Shown here: positions 1,212 to 13,623 of the stretch, one piece after another
Position numbering within the stretch: position 1 is the stretch's first letter
Layout of the letters: each line of letters starts with the position of its first letter
Virus record (IMG/VR): IMGVR_UViG_2639762987_000002
DNA length: 64,000 bases
Source: a virus
Taxonomy: Duplodnaviria; Heunggongvirae; Uroviricota; Caudoviricetes
Direction: 5' to 3' (one strand)
The notes under the pieces: generated by a model
The model's input: the letters and a program-made list of their open reading frames with translations, nothing else
The model's database searches: none
Told to the model about the DNA's origin: nothing
Translations under genes and position numbers: made by a program

Positions 1212-1228
1212 TCAAGGATTTTTTGGAC

Positions 1229-4200
1229 ATGGAACAGTTCAAGAAGAAAAAATTACCGCTTCTTATTGCCGGTGCTGGTGGCAAGAAAAGTAAAAGCTCC
1301 AGCCGTACCCCGGTTGAAGCTGATGATACTGTCAATTCTCGTGCTATGGCAGCCATCCTCGACCTTCTTGGCGAGGGGGTTATCGGTGGCCTGGTAAATG
1401 GCGCAAAGTCGATCTTCATCGACGATTTACCGATCTTGAATGAAGATGGCTCTTCCAACTTCAGCGGTATTACATGGGATTTTCGTGACGGCTCACAAGA
1501 CCAGACGCCAATGGCTGGTTTTGATTTTGTTGAAACGCCTAAGTCCGTAAATATTCAGCTTAAAAAAACACACGACGTTACGGTTTCAATCGATAACGAT
1601 GAAGCTGATCGCGTTCGTGTCATCATGAAATTCCCCTCTTTACGTAGCGTTGATAAAAGCTCTGGCGATACAAATGGCACTACGGTGAAGTACAAATTCC
1701 AGATCGCCAACGCAGACGCAACATTTTCTGATGTAGTGGCAGAAGGTGAGAAAAGCGTTGATATCACGCTAACGGCAAAGAAAACAGGCGTGTATTACCG
1801 TAGCTATGAGCTGAAACTACCTAAGCCTGGTCGTGCATACAAGGTTAGGGTGATTCGTCTTACGGATGATAACAGTAGCCAGTACCTCTACAACGATACC
1901 TGGGTTGATTCCATCGGTGAGATTGTAGATACCCCCATGAACTACCCTAACTCTGCACTTGTTGGCTTAAAGGTCAATTCAGAGCAGTTTGGTAGCACAA
2001 TGCCTTCCCGTTCGTATTTGGTGCGCGGTATCAAAATTCGAGTGCCGTCAAACTACAACGAATACACCAATACTTATGTCGGCGTATGGGACGGTACTTT
2101 TAAGCTGTTGTCTTCTTCAAACCCTGCGTGGATTCTCTACGATTTGCTTACCAATACTCGGTATGGTCTTGGGCAATTTGTGTCGGAGTCCATGATTGAC
2201 CTCGGCCAGCTCTACCAGATTGGTCGATATTGTGACGAAGAGGTCGATGATGGCTTTGGGGGTAAAGAGAAACGCTTTGCAATCAATACGCAGATCACCA
2301 GTCGACAGGACGCATACCGATTAATTCAGGATATTGCCGGTGCATTCCGCGGCATGGTGTTTTGGGCTGGTGGCATGGTTAACATCATGCAGGATAGCCC
2401 ATCAGATCCGGTAATGATGTTTACCAACTCCAACGTCAAAGATGGACTGTTTACCTATAAAGGTTCTGCGCGTAAAGATCGCCCATCCGTTGCGCTCGTG
2501 ACCTACAACAACAAGGAGGACGGTTATAAGCAAAACATCGAGTACGTTGAAGATCAGGACGCAATGCGCCGTTATGGTGAGCGTAAAACAGAAGTCGTAG
2601 CATTTGGATGTACAAGCCGAGGCCAGGCCCACCGAGTTGGTTTGTGGCTTTTGTATACCGCCAGAATGGAGTCGGATGTAATTACATTTACTGCCGGCTT
2701 AGACGCCTCATTTCTGATGCCCGGTGAAACCGTTCTGATTCAGAACAAATATCGTGCAGGTAAACGTAACTCCGGTCGAATTGTGGAGTTTACCAAAAAC
2801 AGCATCACTCTCGATGCGCCTGTGTCGTTAGCTAAAAGCGGCAGCTTTATTCGGATATTGAATCAGGAAGGCAAAATCGTTGAACGCGATGTTCTTGAAA
2901 CTGGCGAAAACATAACAAAGGTTACGTTTTCAAAAGCCCTGTCGTCAGCGGAAACGCCTGTTTTGAACGGTGTCTGGACAATTACAGAACCAGATCTTGA
3001 ACCTATGCGCGTTCGCATCGTTAACATCGCGCAGGGGGAAACGCCGGGTAGCTTTGACATCACCGCTGTTGAGAACAATCCGTCTAAATATGAGGCAATC
3101 GACAATGGTGCAACGCTTATCCCGCAGAATACGACGGTATTGGACCCGACTTACTCCAAGCCGTCTAATTTGCAAATCACTGAAGGGACTTACCTCTCAA
3201 GCCCGGGCAACCTGTCAGTAAAACTGACTGCAACATGGGAAGGGAAATCTCCAGAGTATTGGATCAGTTGGCGACGTTCTGATGAAAACAATGTATCGAA
3301 CTGGCAATCGGCGCGTGTAACCGAAGAACAATACGAAATCGTTAATGTCGCGGAGAATGGACGCTACGACTTCCAACTGTATGCGGTTTCATTCAACGGT
3401 AAAAAAACAGAAATTATCAGTACCGTTTATCAGGTGCTGGGAACAATGACACCGCCGGATGCACCAACGTCATTAACGGCCGTTGGAGACTATCGTAATG
3501 TGATACTGAATTGGGTTAATCCAGATTCGGTAGACCTTGATCACATTAATGTTTACGCATCCCAGACCAACAATCTGGATACGGCGAAACTGATCGCAGA
3601 GTCTGCAAGCACCACCTTTACACATGCTGGTCTTGGGGATAGCGAAACGTGGTATTACTGGGTTCGAGCATCGAACAAGCGAGGTATGTTAAGCCCTCCG
3701 AACTCAAACTTGGGTACAGAGGCGACAACTCGCGATGTACTGTCGTTCCTGGCTGGCAAAATTACATCTTCCGAGCTTGGTCAGGCTCTGCTTGAGGACA
3801 TCAACAGCAAAGCCTCTCAAGAAGCAGTTGACGAGTTAAATGAGCATATCAACCAGAGCGTCGAATCTTTGGAGGGGTCGGTAAACGACGTTAAGGAAGA
3901 TATAGCTGAATTAGATAAGCAGTTCAGCGATAACCTCGCGGGTTTTGAAATAAAATTCAACGAGCGTAGCGATGCTTTGGAGAACGCACAAACCGAGCTT
4001 AAAGGTGAGGTTTCGGCAACGATCGACAAGGTCAATGAAGCGTTTGAAAAAATTGATGCTACTGATGCTGCAATTGTTGAAATCGAAAACACCGTATCTG
4101 AACACGATAAAGCTCTCGCTAATACAGTCGAGGCAATAAAGGCTGCAAGAGACGAAGCGGCGGCTCTTATTGCTAAGGAAAGCGAGGCTCGTGTTGAAGG

Positions 4201-5953
4201 TGATGCCGCAAACGCTAAACAACTGGAAGTGTTGCAGTCGACGGTAGAGGAAAGTTCCGCAGCCGTTGAAGAAATGAAAAAGACGGTTGCAGAGGTCGAT
4301 CGTGCCAGTGCAGAACTGACTACGAACATTGAGGCGTTAGCTAAAACAAATATTGACCTGGCTCTTCGTCAAGATGAAGACCAGCACAAGCAGATGGTCA
4401 ATAACGCGAAGATCGCAACAACACAGAAAACCTTTGCTGATGATATGTCTGCAATGGCCACGAAGGTTGAGGAAATTCGCGTAGAAATTGGCGAAGACAT
4501 TAAGGCCAGTATTCTGGAAGAGTCCACCGCTCGTGCCGATGGCGATGAAGCGTTGGCAAAGCGTGTCACTCAGCTGCAATCTAAGTTTGAAGGAGATATC
4601 AGCGCGGCGATTAGTACAGAACAGGAGGCTCGTACATCTGCCGATGAAGCTTTGACGAAACAAATAACTCAGCTTGAGTCGAAAGTAAGCAACGATATTG
4701 TCGCAGCCATTAAGGAAGAGCAAGAAGCCCGAGCAACGGAAGATTCGGCTCTGGCAAGCCAGATCACCCAACTTCAGGCAAAAGTTGATGATGATATTTC
4801 TGCTGCAATACGCAGTGAGCAGGAGGCGCGTGCGAGCGGAGACTCTGCGTTAGCTAAACAAATAAACCAGCTTCAAGCAAAGGTTGACGGTGATATATCC
4901 GCTGCCATCACTCAGGAGCAGGAGGCCAGAGCAAGTGCTGACCAGGCGCTCTCACGAGAAATTAACAGCCTGCGAGCACAAACCGGAACTGATATTGCCG
5001 CAGCGGTTGCTGTAGAGACAAAGGCAAGGACTGATGCCGATAGTGCATTGTCCACTCAGATTTCGTCTCTTACAGCAAAAGCTAATGATCTCGAGGCATC
5101 TCTTGCCAGAGAAACAACGGCTCGTGCTGATGGTGATACCGCTTTAACAAAAGAGGTTTCAAGTTTAAAAGCACAGACAGCGAAAGATATTAGTGCGGCC
5201 GTTGCAGTTGAAACGCAGGCTCGAACTGATGCTGACTCGGCGTTGTCGTCTCAGATCACCAAGCTGACCTCTCAATACAAAGAGGATATTAAAGCGGCTG
5301 TAGCAACCGAAACGAAAACGCGTACAGAGCAAGATGCTGCATTGGCGACTCAAATCACAAACTTAGAGTCTCAAACGGCAGCCAACATTTCCGCGGCGGT
5401 AACAACTGAAACGACAGCGAGAACGCAGGCAGATAATGCTCTGAGTGGGCGAATCGATACTCTGAAAGCAGAGGTGGATGGAAATACCGCGACAATTCAA
5501 CAGCAGGCAACAGCTATTGCTAATACCAACAAAAAAGTGTCAACCGCGTGGACGTTGAAAATGGAAACTTCAACGAGCGGAGGGCAGAAGTATGTTGCTG
5601 GTATTGCGCTTGGTATCGACACCACTGGCCTTTCTCAGTTTTTGGTGCAGGCTGACAGGTTTGGTTTGGTCAACTCTGTTAACGGGAAGATCACCACGCC
5701 ATTTGTTATCGAAAACAGTATCGCCTATATGAATGGTGCGTATATCAAGGATGGCACAATCACCAATGCAAAAGTAGGCGATCTGCAATCTACCAATTTT
5801 GTTAGCGGTAGATCTGGATGGCGGTTCGGCAAAAATGGAACGCTTGAGATCAACGGTAATAGCGGGGGTAATGGGCGACTGGTCATAAATGGTCAGCGGA
5901 TTGACGTTTATGACGATAACAACGTCTTACGAGTAAGAATTGGCCTTCTGTGA
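1229..5953 (+). CDS. Tail tip host-specificity protein, lambda gpJ-like, with inserted coiled-coil repeat stalk
   Basis: About 1574 aa from ATG 1229 (ORF track starts at TTG 1223); blocks NSALVGLKVNSEQFG, GFGGKEKRF, AFGCTSRGQAHRVGLWL, KYVAGIALGI..LSQFLV match lambda J from memory. Confidence 0.8.
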   Translation: MEQFKKKKLPLLIAGAGGKKSKSSSRTPVEADDTVNSRAMAAILDLLGEGVIGGLVNGAKSIFIDDLPILNEDGSSNFSGITWDFRDGSQDQTPMAGFDFVETPKSVNIQLKKTHDVTVSIDNDEADRVRVIMKFPSLRSVDKSSGDTNGTTVKYKFQIANADATFSDVVAEGEKSVDITLTAKKTGVYYRSYELKLPKPGRAYKVRVIRLTDDNSSQYLYNDTWVDSIGEIVDTPMNYPNSALVGLKVNSEQFGSTMPSRSYLVRGIKIRVPSNYNEYTNTYVGVWDGTFKLLSSSNPAWILYDLLTNTRYGLGQFVSESMIDLGQLYQIGRYCDEEVDDGFGGKEKRFAINTQITSRQDAYRLIQDIAGAFRGMVFWAGGMVNIMQDSPSDPVMMFTNSNVKDGLFTYKGSARKDRPSVALVTYNNKEDGYKQNIEYVEDQDAMRRYGERKTEVVAFGCTSRGQAHRVGLWLLYTARMESDVITFTAGLDASFLMPGETVLIQNKYRAGKRNSGRIVEFTKNSITLDAPVSLAKSGSFIRILNQEGKIVERDVLETGENITKVTFSKALSSAETPVLNGVWTITEPDLEPMRVRIVNIAQGETPGSFDITAVENNPSKYEAIDNGATLIPQNTTVLDPTYSKPSNLQITEGTYLSSPGNLSVKLTATWEGKSPEYWISWRRSDENNVSNWQSARVTEEQYEIVNVAENGRYDFQLYAVSFNGKKTEIISTVYQVLGTMTPPDAPTSLTAVGDYRNVILNWVNPDSVDLDHINVYASQTNNLDTAKLIAESASTTFTHAGLGDSETWYYWVRASNKRGMLSPPNSNLGTEATTRDVLSFLAGKITSSELGQALLEDINSKASQEAVDELNEHINQSVESLEGSVNDVKEDIAELDKQFSDNLAGFEIKFNERSDALENAQTELKGEVSATIDKVNEAFEKIDATDAAIVEIENTVSEHDKALANTVEAIKAARDEAAALIAKESEARVEGDAANAKQLEVLQSTVEESSAAVEEMKKTVAEVDRASAELTTNIEALAKTNIDLALRQDEDQHKQMVNNAKIATTQKTFADDMSAMATKVEEIRVEIGEDIKASILEESTARADGDEALAKRVTQLQSKFEGDISAAISTEQEARTSADEALTKQITQLESKVSNDIVAAIKEEQEARATEDSALASQITQLQAKVDDDISAAIRSEQEARASGDSALAKQINQLQAKVDGDISAAITQEQEARASADQALSREINSLRAQTGTDIAAAVAVETKARTDADSALSTQISSLTAKANDLEASLARETTARADGDTALTKEVSSLKAQTAKDISAAVAVETQARTDADSALSSQITKLTSQYKEDIKAAVATETKTRTEQDAALATQITNLESQTAANISAAVTTETTARTQADNALSGRIDTLKAEVDGNTATIQQQATAIANTNKKVSTAWTLKMETSTSGGQKYVAGIALGIDTTGLSQFLVQADRFGLVNSVNGKITTPFVIENSIAYMNGAYIKDGTITNAKVGDLQSTNFVSGRSGWRFGKNGTLEINGNSGGNGRLVINGQRIDVYDDNNVLRVRIGLL
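4500..5480 (+). repeat. About ten in-frame tandem 99-bp (33-aa) repeats inside the gpJ-like gene
   Basis: Repeating unit DISAAIxxEQEARAxxDxALxxQIxQLxxKVxx read in the translation; predicted alpha-helical. Confidence 0.75.
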
Positions 5954-6046: not shown

Positions 6047-9000
6047 ATGTGGTACAGGGAAGGTACTATCACATTTACACAGGGCAGCAATACTCTGGTT
6101 GGGGCAGGTACAGCCTGGAACGTAACAGCTAATGGTGTGTTGCCGGGGATGATCGTCATTGGCCCCGACAATAAGCTGTATGAGATCAAGCGCGTAACCA
6201 GTGATACGAACATTGTTCTCTCAGAACCTTATACCGGCGAAACTCAGTCTGAAGTTCCGTGCCGAATCATTACGACCTATGAAGGCGACTTAACACAGTT
6301 TAGCGCGCGCTTTACAGCACTAATGTCGCGTATGTCGGCTGATTCCAAGTCCATGCGCAGTTGGTTGACTGCTCTGGATGAGGTGACAATCGAGCGTGAA
6401 GACGGTACAGAAGTGACCGTTAAGCCGCTAATGCAGATCGTCAACGAGCACAACGAAAACGTTGAGTGGTATAAAAATAACACTGACGCGATTGATGCTG
6501 CTGGCGACAAAGCTCGTGAGGCGGCGGCCAGTGCTGCCGCAGCAGCAAAAAGCGCCAATGCCGCTGGAGAAAAAGCCTCTCAAGCGTCTCAAAGTGCATC
6601 CGCTGCGGCATCCTCACAAAGTGCCGCAAGTGCGAGTGCAACTGCTGCGAAAAAATCTGAAACGAATGCTGCAGCGTCACAAAAATCTGCAGCCACTTCT
6701 GCATCCACCGCGACCACGAAGGCGTCAGAAGCTGCCACCTCAGCCCGGGATGCGGCGGCCTCAAAAGAGGCAGCAAAATCATCAGAAACGAGCGCAGCCT
6801 CGAGCGCCAGTAATGCCGCTTCCTCGGCAACGGCGGCTGGAAATTCCGCGAAGGCGGCAAAAACGTCCGAGACGAACGCCAGGTCTTCTGAAACGGCAGC
6901 GGGACAGAGCGCCTCGGCTGCGGCAGGCTCAAAAACAGCGGCTGCGTCGTCTGCCAGTGCCGCGTCAACAAGTGCCGGGCAGGCCTCAGCCAGTGCCACC
7001 GCCGCCGGAAAATCGGCAGAAAGTGCCGCATCGTCTGCTTCAACGGCCACAACGAAGGCTGGCGAAGCCACTGAACAGGCCAGCGCAGCAGCGAGGTCTG
7101 CTTCCGCAGCGAAGACATCCGAAACGAACGCGAAAGCGTCGGAAACCCGTGCAGAATCCTCAAAAACGGCAGCCGCATCGTCCGCCAGTTCGGCAGCGTC
7201 ATCGGCATCATCTGCGTCTGCTTCAAAAGATGAGGCGACCAGACAGGCGTCAGCAGCGAAGGGCAGCGCCACGACGGCATCCACGAAAGCAACAGAGGCG
7301 GCAGGCAGTGCGACGGCTGCATCTCAGAGCAAAACTGCTGCCGAATCTGCTGCGACTCGTGCAGAAGCTGCCGCTGATCGTGCTGAAGAGATTGCCGGTG
7401 CAGTTGCGATGGAAGACGCAAGCCTTACAACTAAAGGTGTTGTGAAACTTAGCAGTGCTGTCGATAGCACCAGTGAATCGCTGGCTGCAACGCCAAAGGC
7501 AGTTAAAACTGTTAAAGATAGTTCAGTTCAAAAAACTGGCGACACAATGGGAGGGCAGTTAAAAATCGGCACGATAAATGCTCTTCGAATATTCAACCAA
7601 GCCTTTGGCCTTATTTTTAGGCGTTCCGAAGATTATATTCATCTTATCCCGACTAATGAAGGGGAGGGAGAAAATGGAGACATCGGTTCATTAAGACCAT
7701 TCTCTATAAACTTAAGATCAGGGTTGGTGTCCATCGGTAATGGACTAAAAGTTGGTGGTAGTGTTACTGGTAATTTGACCGGAAACGCAGATACTGCGAC
7801 CAAGATCAAGACAGCACGTAAGATTGGGGGCGTGGCATTTGATGGATCGGCAGATATCAACTTGCCTGGAGTCAACGCTACCGGTAATCAAAACACTACA
7901 GGTAATGCTGCGACCGCCACGAAACTTCAGGCAGCCAGAACGATTAACGGTGTGTCATTTGATGGTAGTGCAAATATCACATTGACCCCTTCAAATATTG
8001 GGGCGTTGGCATTAACTGGAGGGACTCTTTCAGGTGGTTTAACTGCTGCTGGTGAGATTATTTCAAAGTCAGCAAATGGTCTGCGTATTGCCTATGGCAA
8101 CTATGGATTCTTTATCCGAAATGATGGCTCAAATACATATTTTATGTTGACAGATTCGGGTAACAGTCTTGGTACGTACAATAGCTTAAGGCCGTTTATA
8201 ATTAGTAACTCTACTGGCAATGTTACAATTGCAACTAAATTAAACGCGAGTAGTGGTATCACTGGATCTTTATCGGGTAATGCAAGCACAGCAACCAAAT
8301 TGCAGACAGCAAGAACCATCGGTGGTGTTAGCTTCGATGGCACTGCGAATATTAATTTGCCTGGTGTTAATGCTGCCGGTAATCAGAACACTACCGGTAA
8401 CGCGGCCACAGCGACCAAGTTGCAAACAGCTAGAACTATTAACGGGGTGTCGTTTAACGGCTCTGCGAATATTTCAATACCAACAATTACGTCCAGAGGG
8501 CGCGTTACTGCGCTCACCGGTACAACACAAGGTGCTGCGACTGGATTGCAGATGTACGAGGCATATAACAATGGCTACCCTTCGTCTTACGGGAATGTGC
8601 TTCATCTTAAGGGCGCAACGGCCGTTGGTGAAGGTGAGTTGTTCATAGGTTGGAGCGGTACAAGTGGTGCTCATGCACCTGTACATGTACGTTCGCGACG
8701 AGATACGGATACATCCAGTTGGTCTGAATGGGCGCAAGTTTATACGTCCAAAGACTCAATTCCAGGTGTCAATGCCACCGGTAATCAGAACACTACTGGC
8801 AACGCAGCCTCTGCAACGAAGTTGCAGACAGCCAGAACAATTGGAGGTGTGTCGTTTAATGGCACCGCCAATATTAACTTGCCGGGTGTTAATATAGCGG
8901 GTAATCAGAATACGACTGGTAACGCAGCTTCAGCCACGAAGTTACAAACGGCTCGTACTATCGGTGGTGTTAGTTTTAACGGCACAGCCAATATTAACTT

Positions 9001-9571
9001 ACCTGGTGTGAATACGACCGGTAATCAGAACACTACTGGTAATGCTGCAACCGCCACAAAATTGCAGACAGCAAGGAAAATTGCTGGTGTGGCGTTTGAT
9101 GGCTCTGCCGATATAACTTTGACTGCGGCTAACCTTAATGCTTATACGAAAACAGAGGTAACAAACCTTCTCAGTTCCTATGTGAAGAGTAGTTCTCTTC
9201 CAAGCATGACTGTGCGAACTTCCTCTGTTTCTGGTGGGGATATGGGCATGAGTTTGTCCACATTCATTAGCCACCTTAAATCAAATGGGGCATTTAGCAA
9301 AAGTTATTGGATTGGCTTTGGCGATGCTATGGGATTCAATGCTGGCAGTATCAACAATATAACGGGATTTGGTGCTGTAGAATTAGCAGAATCTATAATC
9401 GAAGTTTTTAATCTACCTAACGGTGATTATACAATTCGTTTAACAACGTCACATAAAGCTGACTACGGTGGAGTGACAAACGCAATCCTCGTTTATCACT
9501 ACCGTAGTAATAGAAGTCCGTCAGGTCAATGGCTGAAATTTGCCGGTACTGTTGGGGCAACAAGCAACTGA
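6047..9571 (+). CDS. Tail fibre protein (side-tail-fibre type)
   Basis: 1174 aa after RBS AAGGAG; long Ala/Ser-rich tract; repeated ~40-aa units with GNAATATKLQTARTIGGVSF typical of phage tail-fibre repeats; follows J-like gene. Confidence 0.75.
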   Translation: MWYREGTITFTQGSNTLVGAGTAWNVTANGVLPGMIVIGPDNKLYEIKRVTSDTNIVLSEPYTGETQSEVPCRIITTYEGDLTQFSARFTALMSRMSADSKSMRSWLTALDEVTIEREDGTEVTVKPLMQIVNEHNENVEWYKNNTDAIDAAGDKAREAAASAAAAAKSANAAGEKASQASQSASAAASSQSAASASATAAKKSETNAAASQKSAATSASTATTKASEAATSARDAAASKEAAKSSETSAASSASNAASSATAAGNSAKAAKTSETNARSSETAAGQSASAAAGSKTAAASSASAASTSAGQASASATAAGKSAESAASSASTATTKAGEATEQASAAARSASAAKTSETNAKASETRAESSKTAAASSASSAASSASSASASKDEATRQASAAKGSATTASTKATEAAGSATAASQSKTAAESAATRAEAAADRAEEIAGAVAMEDASLTTKGVVKLSSAVDSTSESLAATPKAVKTVKDSSVQKTGDTMGGQLKIGTINALRIFNQAFGLIFRRSEDYIHLIPTNEGEGENGDIGSLRPFSINLRSGLVSIGNGLKVGGSVTGNLTGNADTATKIKTARKIGGVAFDGSADINLPGVNATGNQNTTGNAATATKLQAARTINGVSFDGSANITLTPSNIGALALTGGTLSGGLTAAGEIISKSANGLRIAYGNYGFFIRNDGSNTYFMLTDSGNSLGTYNSLRPFIISNSTGNVTIATKLNASSGITGSLSGNASTATKLQTARTIGGVSFDGTANINLPGVNAAGNQNTTGNAATATKLQTARTINGVSFNGSANISIPTITSRGRVTALTGTTQGAATGLQMYEAYNNGYPSSYGNVLHLKGATAVGEGELFIGWSGTSGAHAPVHVRSRRDTDTSSWSEWAQVYTSKDSIPGVNATGNQNTTGNAASATKLQTARTIGGVSFNGTANINLPGVNIAGNQNTTGNAASATKLQTARTIGGVSFNGTANINLPGVNTTGNQNTTGNAATATKLQTARKIAGVAFDGSADITLTAANLNAYTKTEVTNLLSSYVKSSSLPSMTVRTSSVSGGDMGMSLSTFISHLKSNGAFSKSYWIGFGDAMGFNAGSINNITGFGAVELAESIIEVFNLPNGDYTIRLTTSHKADYGGVTNAILVYHYRSNRSPSGQWLKFAGTVGATSN
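6480..7390 (+). repeat. Low-complexity Ala/Ser/Thr-rich coding tract in tail fibre gene
   Basis: Protein region of ~300 aa dominated by A, S, T, K, E; generates spurious long ORFs in other frames and on the minus strand. Confidence 0.8.
7780..9125 (+). repeat. Tail-fibre 120-nt (40-aa) repeats
   Basis: Three in-phase consecutive copies at 8761-8880, 8881-9000, 9001-9120 plus diverged copies near 7861 and 8341 and partial copies. Confidence 0.8.
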
Positions 9572-9609
9572 TTTAGACATTATTTCTAATAAGGATAATT
9601 TATAAGATG

Positions 9610-9645
9610 GTTGTGAGGTCGATAAATATGGCCTCACAACCGCAG
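9610..9645 (+). terminator. Possible hairpin terminator after tail fibre gene
   Basis: 10-bp inverted repeat GGTTGTGAGG...CCTCACAACC; no clear T-run. Confidence 0.35.
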
Positions 9646-9661
9646 TTATAAGGATATATTT

Positions 9662-9916
9662 ATGAGCTATGGTGCACAGGTTTGGTCGCCATCAAGACAG
9701 GAGATGGTCGATGCGTTGGCCCCTGTTTATTACCTCGATTATTTTACTCCCTCTGGTTCAGGAAGTAGAACATATGAGGTTGAGGCGGGATTGGGAATCG
9801 ACTATTACATAATGGACGTAACCAATGGAAAATACACAAGTCTTACGGTTTCTGGAAATACCATTTCGTGGTCTGGAGCTAGTGGCAATTTAAACATATT
9901 GGTTTTTCAAAAATAA
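9662..9916 (+). CDS. Hypothetical protein (tail-fibre-associated by position)
   Basis: 84 aa ORF with RBS AAGGA; no recognisable motif. Confidence 0.4.
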   Translation: MSYGAQVWSPSRQEMVDALAPVYYLDYFTPSGSGSRTYEVEAGLGIDYYIMDVTNGKYTSLTVSGNTISWSGASGNLNILVFQK

Positions 9917-10524
9917 TGTACGGAAGCAAGATATATCGATCTGACGGGAAGGTCTGGATGTCTCCTTCTTTGTCTCCTATCGTTTTTCAGAGAAAGCAGG
10001 TTGTTTCTTTGTCTGGCGGGACAGAGTTTAACACCCAAATATCTCCAGATCGTTCACCGATGATTTTTGTTGCCTATTCGAAAGCTGTTTCATTAATAGC
10101 CAACAGAATAGTGCGTAATAACCAGGTGATTTACAGTTTCGGAGGTCAGGGTAGCGACTCTAGTGCCACGATATACGTATTTTCGAAAGGTATAGCCAAA
10201 AAAGAAACTTGGGGCATGAGTTTTTTCAATGCGCGAGGAGAGGAGATCTATAATACGGCAAATATCCCACTTTCATTTACCTTTCTTAATAATACGGAGT
10301 GGAACAGTTCTGGAGGGCATGTTTTTGATTACCCGCCAGCGATAATCCCAACATATGCAAATGTGTTCGCGGTTCCAGTACCGGGCGGGGCCATGACAAT
10401 GGTTTATGGATATGCGGCATATGGAAATACTGTTAGTTCCATATTCGTAAACCAACTTAATGGCGGCCATAGTTTTAGCGTAAATGGCAGAGTACCGGTA
10501 ATAAATAGAAATCTGTATAACTGA
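9916..10524 (+). CDS. Hypothetical protein (tail-fibre-associated by position)
   Basis: 202 aa ORF, start overlaps upstream stop (TAATG); Gly/Ser/Asn-rich; no recognisable motif. Confidence 0.45.
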   Translation: MYGSKIYRSDGKVWMSPSLSPIVFQRKQVVSLSGGTEFNTQISPDRSPMIFVAYSKAVSLIANRIVRNNQVIYSFGGQGSDSSATIYVFSKGIAKKETWGMSFFNARGEEIYNTANIPLSFTFLNNTEWNSSGGHVFDYPPAIIPTYANVFAVPVPGGAMTMVYGYAAYGNTVSSIFVNQLNGGHSFSVNGRVPVINRNLYN

Positions 10525-10534
10525 TGAGTAAACG

Positions 10535-10765
10535 ATGAAAAGATTATTTCTAACAATAGCTGTTGTTCTCTCTCTTACTGGCTGTCAGAAATTGCCGACA
10601 CCCATATGTTATGGTGAGGCTATCATTGGTGGACAGGAGACAGTCATACCTATATATGCTGTTAAAAAGGTTAACGGCTATACCTTATACAAAGCGGGTA
10701 GCATCTATAACTGGCGATGGGTTGGAGTAGGTGCTTTCTCATCAGTGCGTTGCAATGCTGAATGA
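10535..10765 (+). CDS. Small lipoprotein, candidate receptor-blocking / superinfection-exclusion protein
   Basis: 76 aa; signal peptide MKRLFLTIAVVLSLTGC with lipobox LTGC; lies directly downstream of tail fibre genes. Confidence 0.5.
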   Translation: MKRLFLTIAVVLSLTGCQKLPTPICYGEAIIGGQETVIPIYAVKKVNGYTLYKAGSIYNWRWVGVGAFSSVRCNAE

Positions 10766-10846
10766 TAAGTAAGTACACACCTACAACAAAAGGGTGAAAT
10801 GTGATATAAATCCGCCATCCCGATTTGACTTTTCATGGAGGAAAAC

Positions 10847-11170
10847 ATGTCGAACGAGATGGCGGGCGTTACAACAGAGCAAGTTGAGCGTATTGCCGCG
10901 ATCGTTGCTAGGGAGGTTGTTGGCAAATTAGGTAAAGAGCTACGTGAAGAAATTGGCCAGGAGGTCAATAATCAGCTGAAAACCTACTTTGGTGATATGA
11001 CCCCGGCGCAACATAGTATTCAACACTCCAATCTGGACAAACTCCTTAACCGGTTAGATTCCATCTCCAGTGGGTTCTTTGGCGGCATTGTTTCTAAAAT
11101 AACGTCGTTCATTATTACTGCACTGCTTTTGGGGTTAGCCGCGTATGGCGTAAAAAATGGACTGCAATAA
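10847..11170 (+). CDS. Membrane protein with C-terminal TM helix (possible holin)
   Basis: RBS GGAGGA before ATG 10847 (ORF track begins 10835); single C-terminal hydrophobic helix; first gene of putative lysis cassette. Confidence 0.35.
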   Translation: MSNEMAGVTTEQVERIAAIVAREVVGKLGKELREEIGQEVNNQLKTYFGDMTPAQHSIQHSNLDKLLNRLDSISSGFFGGIVSKITSFIITALLLGLAAYGVKNGLQ

Positions 11171-11183
11171 CAGGAGATCAAGG

Positions 11184-11876
11184 ATGAAGACTCCGAGAGG
11201 CATTCGTAATAATAACCCCGGTAATCTTGATAAAGGATCACCGTGGCAAGGTCTGGTTGCGAATCCAGGCGAACCGCGCTTTTGCACGTTTAAAGACCCT
11301 GTTTGGGGAATTCGTGCGCTGGCGGTGACTCTAATTACCTACCACGACAAACGTCGCGCAAAAGACGGCTCAAGTATCGATACCATTCGTGAAGTTATTG
11401 AACGTTGGGCACCGCCGAATGAAAACAATACTGACGCCTACATTAATGAGGTGTCTAAAGCCGTTGGTGTAACCGCAGACATGATCATCGATCTGCATGA
11501 TTACGACATCCTTCGACCTTTGGTTGAGGCAATCATTCGCCACGAGAATGGCCGAGGCCCGCTAAAAACGCTGAACACCTGGTATGCGGCAGAAGTAATT
11601 GAGGAAGGTCTGCGTCGAGCTGGCGTTGTTAAGCCGGTGAAAACCGTGAAGGCTGTTCCTGTAACTAAAGAAACCGCAGGCGCAACTGTTACAGCAGGTA
11701 TTGGTCTGGCGCAGCTGGCCGATGTTATGCCGCAGGTTTCCGCTGCTATGGATAAAGCACAAGGTCATATCTCTAGCGGGGATACAGTACGCATCATCTT
11801 CGGTATTGCCACTATTGTTGTGGCAGGATTCATTGCCTGGTCGCAGGTAAGAAAACACCAGAAAGGGATGGTCTAA
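11184..11876 (+). CDS. Lysis-cassette protein, putative cell-wall hydrolase with C-terminal membrane anchor
   Basis: RBS CAGGAG before ATG 11184; motif IRNNNPGNL; C-terminal hydrophobic helix; position before spanin pair. Function inferred from context only. Confidence 0.35.
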   Translation: MKTPRGIRNNNPGNLDKGSPWQGLVANPGEPRFCTFKDPVWGIRALAVTLITYHDKRRAKDGSSIDTIREVIERWAPPNENNTDAYINEVSKAVGVTADMIIDLHDYDILRPLVEAIIRHENGRGPLKTLNTWYAAEVIEEGLRRAGVVKPVKTVKAVPVTKETAGATVTAGIGLAQLADVMPQVSAAMDKAQGHISSGDTVRIIFGIATIVVAGFIAWSQVRKHQKGMV

Positions 11877-11877
11877 T

Positions 11878-12129
11878 ATGCTAGGCAGCCTGATGACAAA
11901 GCTAAAAGTTGCTTTGATTACGCTGGCTGCCGTTCTTTTCGTTCTTGTCGGCGCTTACACGATGGGCGGGAATGCGGCGCGACGAGCAATGGAAGAGAAG
12001 GCAAAACAGGAAGACAGAAAACGACTTCAAAGCACAGTGGATGTCAAAAATGAAACGGTTAATGAAGTGCGGCAAAAAGATGCCTCTGGTGTTCATCGCG
12101 AGCTGTTTGATAAATGGGTGCGTGATTAA
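11878..12129 (+). CDS. Putative i-spanin (Rz-like)
   Basis: 83 aa; N-terminal TM helix then charged helical region; an overlapping lipoprotein gene lies in another frame. Confidence 0.5.
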   Translation: MLGSLMTKLKVALITLAAVLFVLVGAYTMGGNAARRAMEEKAKQEDRKRLQSTVDVKNETVNEVRQKDASGVHRELFDKWVRD

Positions 12130-12286
12130 GACGCAGGCTCCAGGCGTGCTATTCTGCGATGCTGCAAATCCTATTTATGTGAGTAGAGAGGATTTTATGA
12201 CTGAGGAAACGGAGCGACAGTTGCTTATCCACAATACGATAGGTGAAAGGCTGTGTGAGTGGGGGGCACCTGAACTGAGTCGATGA
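12050..12286 (+). CDS. Putative o-spanin (Rz1-like lipoprotein), overlapping the i-spanin gene
   Basis: Alternate frame of ORF 11945-12286; signal peptide MKRLMKCGKKMPLVFIAS with lipobox IASC; start codon uncertain (12041 or 12050). Confidence 0.45.
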   Translation: MKRLMKCGKKMPLVFIASCLINGCVIKTQAPGVLFCDAANPIYVSREDFMTEETERQLLIHNTIGERLCEWGAPELSR

Positions 12287-12502: not shown

Positions 12503-12886
12503 ATGCTGAACGAGAAACGTTCTATACAAACTATTCGCGATTGCACGAGTATTATCGAGACTCATGTGCTGAATCAGCACAAGCTTGAAGTACGTAAGCT
12601 CAATAATGACGCTATTGAACCGGAAGACTCACGCTTCATCGTTACCTTCAAAGACGATGTTGAGCGCGCTGGTGCAAGCGTGAAGCCATTAGCTGAAGCA
12701 ATTTACCTGAATGGTCGTGTTCGTTTTGTAGTCAAGCCAGCTAAACAGTACCCTGAGCTGTCTCGTTTTATCGAGGCTTTTTCGGAGGTTATTGAACATT
12801 CTATTCGCCGCTTCTTACGCAATCATGGTAGCATTGTCAGCACGGTTAAGGCTGATGATTCTGCTACAAAATGGCTCCTACACTAG
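12503..12886 (+). CDS. Hypothetical protein
   Basis: 127 aa; overlaps next ORF by 16 nt, suggesting a two-gene operon. Confidence 0.45.
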   Translation: MLNEKRSIQTIRDCTSIIETHVLNQHKLEVRKLNNDAIEPEDSRFIVTFKDDVERAGASVKPLAEAIYLNGRVRFVVKPAKQYPELSRFIEAFSEVIEHSIRRFLRNHGSIVSTVKADDSATKWLLH

Positions 12887-13623
12887 ATAGCGCATATTCA
12901 AAAGATCTAAGCGAGTTTCCTCATAAAGGGGAGACTCGTGTTGTTCGTTTTGGCTTTCTTATCAATGAAGCCTCCCTCTATAAAATCTCAGAAATTGAAA
13001 TCATTGAACCAGAAGATGACATTTGCCTGTATGTCTCTATGGAACTTGTAGGTGCGCGCGACCAAGGCGACCTGAGCGAATTCATCTTAGATCGAGCGGA
13101 TGAAGATGCCCCTGAAGAAGAGATTATCAAAGAGGTGCTCCAGTCCGGGCTTCTGGACGAAAACAAAAATACGATCGCTGGTAGGATAGCTCTGCGTGAA
13201 TATAGTTTTGTTGAAGACGGTAATGAGATCGAATGTTACCAGGTAGCCGGTGTCGAAACTGTCAGAGAGCGTCGTCAGCGAGGATTGTGTCACCGTACCT
13301 ATCTCTTTCTTCTTCATTGGTATGAGCATTTAGTCTGCGACGATACACAAACCATTCCTGGTGCTAAGATCTGGGCAGGGCCTCTCATGCGAACCGGCGA
13401 TGTGCGTATATACAATGCCAAAACAGAAACGTTCGAGGATGTGTTAGGTGAGTACGGGATGGGGAAAGAAACCGGATTTTTGCCGTGGAACAGAGGATTG
13501 TTGCTTGATGCAGAGTTAAGCTCTTGGCTCCCAAACAAAGTGCAAGTTAACGTTCAGAAATTTATCGTACTTATCATCTCCCGCAAAACAAGAACTCCAG
13601 TAGGTTTATACCTAAAAGATTAA
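12871..13623 (+). CDS. Hypothetical protein
   Basis: 250 aa, acidic N-terminal half; followed by a terminator. Confidence 0.5.
   Translation: MAPTLDSAYSKDLSEFPHKGETRVVRFGFLINEASLYKISEIEIIEPEDDICLYVSMELVGARDQGDLSEFILDRADEDAPEEEIIKEVLQSGLLDENKNTIAGRIALREYSFVEDGNEIECYQVAGVETVRERRQRGLCHRTYLFLLHWYEHLVCDDTQTIPGAKIWAGPLMRTGDVRIYNAKTETFEDVLGEYGMGKETGFLPWNRGLLLDAELSSWLPNKVQVNVQKFIVLIISRKTRTPVGLYLKD

Follow-up and report, generated by a model that had tools for sequence, protein, structure and literature searches.

The 64,000-nucleotide (nt) stretch of viral DNA analysed here (IMG/VR record IMGVR_UViG_2639762987_000002; hereafter the window) contains at positions 10535-10765 a small gene that very probably encodes a phage exclusion lipoprotein of the Cor family, carried by an SSU5-like Escherichia coli phage-plasmid. 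An earlier sequence-only reading had described this open reading frame (ORF) as a 76-residue lipoprotein occupying the same place, relative to the receptor-binding genes, as Cor in lambdoid phages and Llp in T5. Both the ORF and its lipoprotein features were confirmed, and at the level of sequence the gene is a true homologue of Cor, beyond a positional analogue.

10535-10765, + strand: cor, a 76-aa phage exclusion lipoprotein precursor with an ATG start, stop codon included (PHROG 1119, NF047972).
10535-10585, + strand: cor signal peptide with the lipobox L14-T15-G16-C17, its codons at 10574-10585 (sequence reading and LPAM_1).

The translation given for this frame in the ORF listing was MKRLFLTIAVVLSLTGCQKLPTPICYGEAIIGGQETVIPIYAVKKVNGYTLYKAGSIYNWRWVGVGAFSSVRCNAE. 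PHROG 1119 ('Cor superinfection exclusion protein') matched along the whole protein with an E-value of 7.8e-30. Moreover, the NCBIfam equivalog model NF047972 ('phage exclusion lipoprotein Cor') gave 79.5 bits, its cut-off being 31, with residues 1-74 aligned to positions 1-77 of the 78 in the profile. When compared with HK022 Cor by BLASTP, the window protein showed 36 identities in 76 positions (47%, E 4e-24), and by tblastn it was matched in 188 phage records. At their head stood gp25 of Salmonella phage SSU5 (59%, annotated as Cor-like), followed by Stx2 phage 86, POCJ13 and related records (58%) and then by HK022, the mEp phages and HK75 (47%). The alignment of 19 Cor family members (A1) revealed invariant C17, G32, I40, Y41, Y52, A54, G55, W60, W62 and C73, whereas P23, C25 (at least 90%), F58, N59, V63 and the N-W-R-W-V region were nearly invariant. 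All conserved family residues were present in the window protein, including the Cys pair, I-Y, Y-x-A-G and N-W-x-W-V. In addition, two cor alleles of about 95% DNA identity kept the frame and differed by eight synonymous and two non-synonymous codons in one case and by seven and three in the other, and this synonymous excess is the pattern expected of purifying selection on cor. Because the PHROG 1119 and NF047972 matches, the 188 tblastn records and the signature of purifying selection all point in the same direction, the ORF is not a chance frame.

The signal peptide contained every part that a lipoprotein precursor needs. The N-terminus reads MKRLFLTIAVVLSLTG immediately before the cysteine, with K2 and R3 forming a basic n-region, uncharged hydrophobic residues at positions 4-13, and then the lipobox. 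The sequence also conforms to the PROSITE-type lipoprotein rule, according to which the six residues before the box lack D, E, R and K, one of A, G or S stands at -1 and the Cys lies within residues 15-35. The Pfam model LPAM_1 matched residues 1-18 with an E-value of 0.0065 and 17.3 bits, slightly under its 20-bit cut-off, and no other Pfam model matched the protein, Pfam holding no Cor family beside this generic lipid-attachment-site model. The residue at position +2 after the lipidated Cys governs lipoprotein sorting by the Lol system. In the window protein this residue is Gln and not Asp; thus, sorting to the outer membrane is predicted, and the Cor of the window is predicted to be an outer-membrane lipoprotein.

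The family appeared to be narrow, since only 48 Cor relatives at E ≤ 0.001 emerged when 1.84 billion cluster representatives were searched exhaustively with a profile and the named relatives came from enterobacterial genera. These named relatives were among the 114 family members found when HK022 Cor was used as the query in a word-indexed protein search; the window Cor as the query yielded only three truncated, near-identical fragments. A sequence search of the PDB with the window Cor gave nothing beyond spurious matches to 'Pizza' designer proteins.

The Cor identity of the gene is already known from public annotation. On the E. coli plasmid NZ_CP070135.1 RefSeq lists the identical gene as 'cor, phage exclusion lipoprotein Cor' (WP_032203357.1), and SSU5 gp25 (YP_006906657.1) also carries the Cor name; the older PLSDB gene table for the identical plasmid omits cor. 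Publications likewise exist on the family, on its cassette and on the mechanism of the Llp type. Since the family and the position are known and public records name the gene, the finding is correct but ordinary.

The sequence-only reading had placed the gene directly after the tail fibre genes. Strictly, two small ORFs intervene between the side tail fibre gene and cor. However, both belong to the same receptor-recognition cassette, and therefore the positional argument holds. The genes concerned are the following.

1223-5953, + strand: J-like tail tip protein of 1576 aa (ORF listing; 'phage tail tip fiber protein' in RefSeq).
6047-9571, + strand: long side tail fibre of 1174 aa (Pfam Gp34_trimer, E 4.3e-26; 'tail fiber protein' in RefSeq).
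9662-9916, + strand: ORF84, 84 aa, the first cassette gene (PHROG 557 'outer membrane protein', E 1.3e-24).
9916-10524, + strand: ORF202, 202 aa, ending 10 nt upstream of cor (PHROG 425 'membrane associated protein', E 5.5e-49).

The trio of PHROG 557, 425 and 1119 is common to the window, HK022, T1, N15, phi80 and FritzSarasin (Bas04). In HK022, N15 and phi80 it stands in the same order directly 3' of the J gene; in T1 cor is inverted, and in Bas04 the lipoprotein gene comes first. None of the three cassette proteins of the window was matched by PADLOC. According to the BASEL paper and a preprint (10.64898/2026.04.02.716166), small siphoviruses encode their receptor-binding proteins in the locus 3' of J, the alleles of which follow the terminal receptor, and exclusion factors are among the accessory proteins encoded there. 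Homologues of PHROG 425 in these phages have been proposed to be receptor-binding proteins (PMC8594841; 10.64898/2026.04.02.716166; PMC13164509), and an 'extended cor cassette' has been described in T1, HK022, N15, ES18 and phi80, all of which depend on FhuA (PMC13164509). The J-like protein is thought to be the docking site for receptor-binding proteins, and its C-terminus (…DGTITNAKVG…NVLRVRIG) lines up by eye with J of HK022 and Bas04.

The Cor proteins of HK022, phi80, N15, mEp167 and T1 (NF047972, PHROG 1119) are homologous to that of the window over the full length and have an equal size, the same lipobox, the same Cys pair and the NWRWV motif. Their genes have the same PHROG 557 and 425 partners and are likewise placed after tail tip or fibre genes. 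Several features differ. The window gene resides on a phage-plasmid of about 108 kb and not in a lambdoid prophage or T1, and its cassette follows the long side fibre, whereas the lambdoid cassette follows J directly. The gap before cor is 10 nt in the window in comparison to about 110 nt in HK022, N15 and phi80. A terminator is annotated after cor in N15 and phi80 but nothing terminator-like was found beside cor in the window. The T1 gene lies on the opposite strand, whereas that of the window lies on the + strand with its partners. Lambdoid cor is also typically, though not by strict definition, a separate 'moron' unit expressed from the prophage. The closest counterpart is SSU5, which belongs to the same lineage and has the same gene order (PHROG 557, PHROG 425, cor, holin) and an equally short gap before cor, its gp25 being 57-59% identical to the window Cor. 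However, SSU5 has an additional upstream tail fibre adhesin gene, gp22 (PHROG 1121), which the window lacks, and the cassette alleles of the two are too diverged to be linked by megablast.

Some details of the cassette and tail genes were observed in addition. In RefSeq (188 aa, from window position 9958) and in SSU5, ORF202 is annotated to start 14 codons later than position 9916. The intervening residues MYGSKIYRSDGKVW (window 9916-9957; SSU5 locus L001 8381-8422) are conserved in SSU5, Bas04 and Stx2 phage 86, and the longer ORF starts on the preceding stop, the ORF84 stop and the ORF202 start sharing one base (TAATG); hence, the annotated start is probably too late. In the short-tailed Stx2-converting phage 86, the closest Cor outside the SSU5 type sits after a tail fibre and a tail fibre adhesin gene (PHROG 1121), and its PHROG 557/425 pair is found 3 kb away, adjoining lom (locus L008, 5428-6213 and 9441-10345). 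The adhesin, the pair and Cor are thus contiguous in SSU5 but split in phage 86, which implies that these modules reassort. The window J-like protein, with 1576 aa, is about 400 aa longer than J of HK022 (1183) or Bas04 (1158); the additional residues form, on visual inspection of the translation, a long series of imperfect coiled-coil-like repeats (…DISAAI..EQEARA.AD.AL..QI..L…), which Tandem Repeats Finder did not call at the DNA level. The side tail fibre gene contains three 120-nt tandem repeats at 8765-9119 (73% matches) encoding GVN..GNQNTTGNAA.ATKLQTARTIGGVSFNG.ANINLP modules, with more copies upstream and a long Ala/Ser-rich stretch, and its start differs between RefSeq versions (3423 nt vs 3141 nt).

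The predicted structure of the mature protein agrees with the sequence-based assignment.

10607-10753, + strand: span containing the predicted beta-rich mature domain and bounded by the codons of Cys25 (10607-10609) and Cys73 (10751-10753); the domain's ends may be joined by a candidate disulphide.

AlphaFold2, supplied with a 59-sequence alignment of the window and database Cor proteins, modelled the 60 mature residues as an all-beta protein of five strands, with a mean predicted local distance difference test (pLDDT) score of 89.5 and a predicted template modelling (pTM) score of 0.69. Among 48,164 PDB chains the predicted fold was nearest to T5 Llp and fell within the Llp-like small beta fold; a Foldseek search against the PDB gave no significant match, and no sequence homology to Llp was detectable. 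The best BFVD match (E 1.3e-4) was a 'super-infection exclusion protein' from a phage, behind which ranked an unnamed DT571/2 protein and phage proteins bearing the annotation 'Lipoprotein'. The conserved Cys pair corresponds to mature positions 9 and 57, with a spacing as in Llp, in which the Cys11-Cys58 disulphide constrains the termini (PMC9586334). By analogy, C25 and C73 may form a disulphide joining the ends of the domain. The model is in agreement with two reports of a common fold for Cor and Llp (10.64898/2026.03.26.714494; PMC13164509).

Llp (PDB 8A60 chain B, 7QJF) resembles the window Cor in several other respects: both are small outer-membrane lipoproteins (as predicted for that of the window) of about 60 mature residues, with a Cys pair near both termini, and both are encoded in a receptor-recognition region near known or proposed receptor-binding-protein genes. 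However, the neighbour of llp is pb5, which is unrelated to the PHROG 425 and 557 proteins of the window, and llp belongs to the early genes of a virulent phage, whereas the window cor is found on a phage-plasmid. A third exclusion gene follows the same logic. Rtp45 of phage Rtp is a superinfection exclusion protein bound to LptDE (PDB 9RPS) that acts from the periplasmic side (PMC12685063; 10.64898/2026.04.02.716166), and its gene likewise stands beside a receptor-binding-protein gene 3' of J. Its receptor is LptD, and kinship with Cor in sequence or fold found no support here, no direct comparison having been made. Taken together, the homology to Cor, the three-gene cassette and the predicted fold nearest to T5 Llp favour the proposal of the earlier reading that the gene encodes a receptor-masking factor of the Cor/Llp kind.

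On the basis of homology and fold, we infer how the protein would localise, bind and exclude. The precursor would be exported and lipidated at Cys17 and its signal peptide cleaved, as the lipobox suggests, leaving a 60-residue mature protein with the predicted beta fold, the ends of which are probably clamped by a Cys9-Cys57 disulphide as in T5 Llp, judging from the conservation of the pair. Adsorption or DNA entry would then be blocked for the phage itself and for any phage sharing its receptor, and progeny would be spared loss on cell debris. The exclusion step is proposed because of the homology to Cor of HK022, phi80, N15 and T1 and because of the FhuA-Llp complex, whose solved structure offers an analogue; the mechanism of Llp itself has been worked out. 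According to an Llp preprint, FhuA is functionally inactivated by Cor proteins, whose molecular mechanism, as the preprint also states, has not been elucidated (10.64898/2026.03.26.714494). This leaves room for an indirect mode of action, in which Cor contacts several abundant outer-membrane proteins or generally disturbs receptors in place of a one-to-one, Llp-like periplasmic clamp, as the title of a 2018 paper, taken from its citation, also suggests. We regard this as improbable: Llp is the closest match to the predicted fold, Cor and Llp have the terminal Cys pair in common, and an AlphaFold3 model of KanT1 Cor docks at FhuA's periplasmic side with an interface pTM of 0.84 (PMC13164509).

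The position of cor also bears on its expression and on a possible role in lysis. While cor starts 10 nt after ORF202, the holin gene begins about 70 nt 3' of cor, and no promoter- or terminator-like sites flanking cor were detected in a scan of 9400-11300. The short gap and the apparent lack of an own promoter or terminator suggest that cor is probably cotranscribed with ORF84 and ORF202 as one unit, and transcription may read through from the tail genes into the three. A strong hairpin at 9608-9642 (GGUUGUGAGGUCGA..., 14-bp stem, 7-nt loop) lies between the tail fibre gene and ORF84, at the upstream edge of the cassette. The 94-nt intergenic RNA containing this site has a folding energy of -26.9 kcal/mol (z = -4.35 vs shuffles); since no U-run follows the stem, the hairpin is not a classical terminator.

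Downstream of cor, the holin, endolysin and spanin genes occupy 10835-12286. The location of a gene for a small, predicted outer-membrane lipoprotein about 70 nt 5' of them would fit a lysis function, for instance as the outer-membrane spanin component, with no part in exclusion. Such a role is highly unlikely. The window Cor matched none of the lysis PHROGs, the DNA downstream already encodes a full Rz/Rz1-like pair (PHROG 1026 at 11878-12129 and PHROG 1275 within 11945-12286), the same lysis cassette occurs without cor in Escherichia phage Cyrano, and in HK022, N15, phi80 and T1 cor does not adjoin the lysis genes. The spanin identity was rejected on account of the missing spanin-family match and the separate downstream pair.

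Two further observations were made in this region. The endolysin gene (11157-11876; PHROG 873, E 2.7e-88) shares 14 nt with the holin gene and encodes a hydrophobic segment at its C-terminus (…RIIFGIATIVVAGFIAWSQV…); RefSeq names the product merely 'membrane protein'. To our knowledge, a C-terminal membrane anchor is unusual for an endolysin. In addition, 3' of the spanins Cyrano has a KacT-type toxin-antitoxin pair (locus L002, 7726-8560), whereas 12503-13623 in the window contains a pair of unrelated ORFs (127 and 250 aa), so that another variable slot appears to lie here, beside the partition genes.

Which receptor the protein would mask was approached by comparing the three cassette proteins with their counterparts, all identities being computed over aligned residues. 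The window Cor was 57% identical to that of SSU5, 54% to that of Stx2 phage 86, 49% to that of HK022, 43% to those of N15 and phi80, 28% to that of T1 and 33% to the Bas04 lipoprotein. For ORF202 the respective values were 75% (SSU5), 24% (Stx2 phage 86), 20% (HK022), 18% (N15), 20% (phi80), 17% (T1) and 29% (Bas04), and for ORF84 they were 69%, 29%, 24%, 25%, 24%, 24% and 37% in the same order. In the neighbour-joining tree of Cor the window, SSU5 and Stx2 phage 86 formed a sister group to HK022, phi80 and N15, with T1 outside and the Bas04 lipoprotein furthest. On parsimony, this nesting among the Cor proteins of FhuA phages indicates FhuA, which we consider, somewhat more readily than any other candidate, to be the receptor of the window Cor, judging by sequence relationships.

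Several points weigh against this view of the window protein as a FhuA-masking exclusion factor. In the ORF84 and ORF202 trees the window and SSU5 joined Bas04 and Stx2 phage 86, away from the four FhuA-linked alleles, and both proteins were 17-25% identical to these alleles in comparison to 29-37% to the Bas04 allele. The terminal receptor of Bas04 is BtuB (BASEL supplementary table); the partner proteins being nearer to this allele, the cassette as a whole looks unlike the FhuA type. SSU5 is reported to depend on the lipopolysaccharide core via its tail fibre gp22, and no protein receptor is mentioned in that report (PMC12312913); the window, as noted above, has no adhesin gene of the gp22 type. 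The next closest Cor after that of SSU5 (about 54-58%), from Stx2 phage 86, follows a tail fibre adhesin and not the PHROG 557/425 pair. The 9400-11300 scan provided no convincing promoter for cor, revealing three promoter-like sites when 4.8 were expected from shuffles. Finally, no experiment on any SSU5-type Cor was found in the literature searched.

These observations leave room for the masking of another outer-membrane protein by the same family and mechanism, be it BtuB, another TonB-dependent transporter or a different protein, in which case the SSU5-type cassette (ORF84, ORF202 and Cor) would represent a new receptor-specificity type with a 'core' Cor directed to a receptor other than FhuA. 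We consider this possible but doubtful, and what remains of our expectation falls to an indirect exclusion function or none. Beside the clustering of ORF84 and ORF202, such a specificity would be in line with the occurrence of Cor-like proteins in BtuB phages (PMC13164509) and with the suggestion that many TonB-dependent transporters are probably subject to exclusion by lipoproteins (PMC9586334). On the other hand, the window Cor is 43-49% identical to Cor of HK022, N15 and phi80, whereas those three are just 35-38% identical to that of T1, although all four phages use FhuA. Moreover, the BtuB-phage lipoprotein of Bas04 scored 33 bits on PHROG 1119 vs 104 bits for the window Cor, and the latter passes the NCBIfam equivalog model built for Cor. 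FhuA therefore stays the favoured receptor. The C-terminus of J was rejected as a receptor clue, the J tips of HK022 (FhuA) and Bas04 (BtuB) being nearly identical by eye. For SSU5-like phage-plasmids, our literature search found nothing on Cor or a protein receptor.

The gene occurs on a defined group of plasmids. It was present in 68 of the 5,426 complete E. coli genomes, every copy residing on a plasmid of about 95-112 kb, and the 1.2 kb with the three small genes was 100% identical to plasmid unnamed3 of E. coli FDAARGOS_1281 (NZ_CP070135.1, 108 kb). At no less than 95% identity this 1.2-kb cassette was found in 79 PLSDB plasmids, 78 of them from Escherichia; the neighbouring lysis module was found in 333, including 219 from Escherichia. 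The window allele is thus carried by about one third of the Escherichia plasmids having this module (78/219). From the holin gene onward the window was 83-95% identical to the SSU5-like phage-plasmids Cyrano, PhiR41_1, CMS-2020a and SSU5. In Cyrano the tail fibre gene adjoins the holin gene, with no cor cassette between them. A distant ORF202 homologue (26% identity over 75% of the query) is encoded elsewhere in Cyrano (OV696614.1, 82217-82666), away from the tail-fibre/holin site. Searching the 64-kb window by tblastn with all cassette proteins revealed no second copy of any of them. On the 94.8-kb plasmid of E. coli AH02 (NZ_CP081702.1; locus L012, 381-1000) the ORF202 homologue is frameshifted and cor is intact, though unannotated, which hints that cor can persist after the receptor-binding-like gene decays.

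The point of some value is which receptor would be blocked by the SSU5-type Cor, since its tree conflicts with those of the upstream proteins. Should the receptor be other than FhuA, Cor would have switched from one outer-membrane protein to another and yet retained about 45-50% identity, and approximately one third of the Escherichia plasmids with the lysis module would alter the surface phenotype of clinical hosts. If the target is FhuA, the host may no longer take up ferrichrome and may become resistant to albomycin, colicin M and microcin J25. In either case, provided that the gene is annotated correctly, E. coli with this phage-plasmid may resist every phage that uses the masked receptor, which would be relevant to phage therapy and to the competition among these plasmids.
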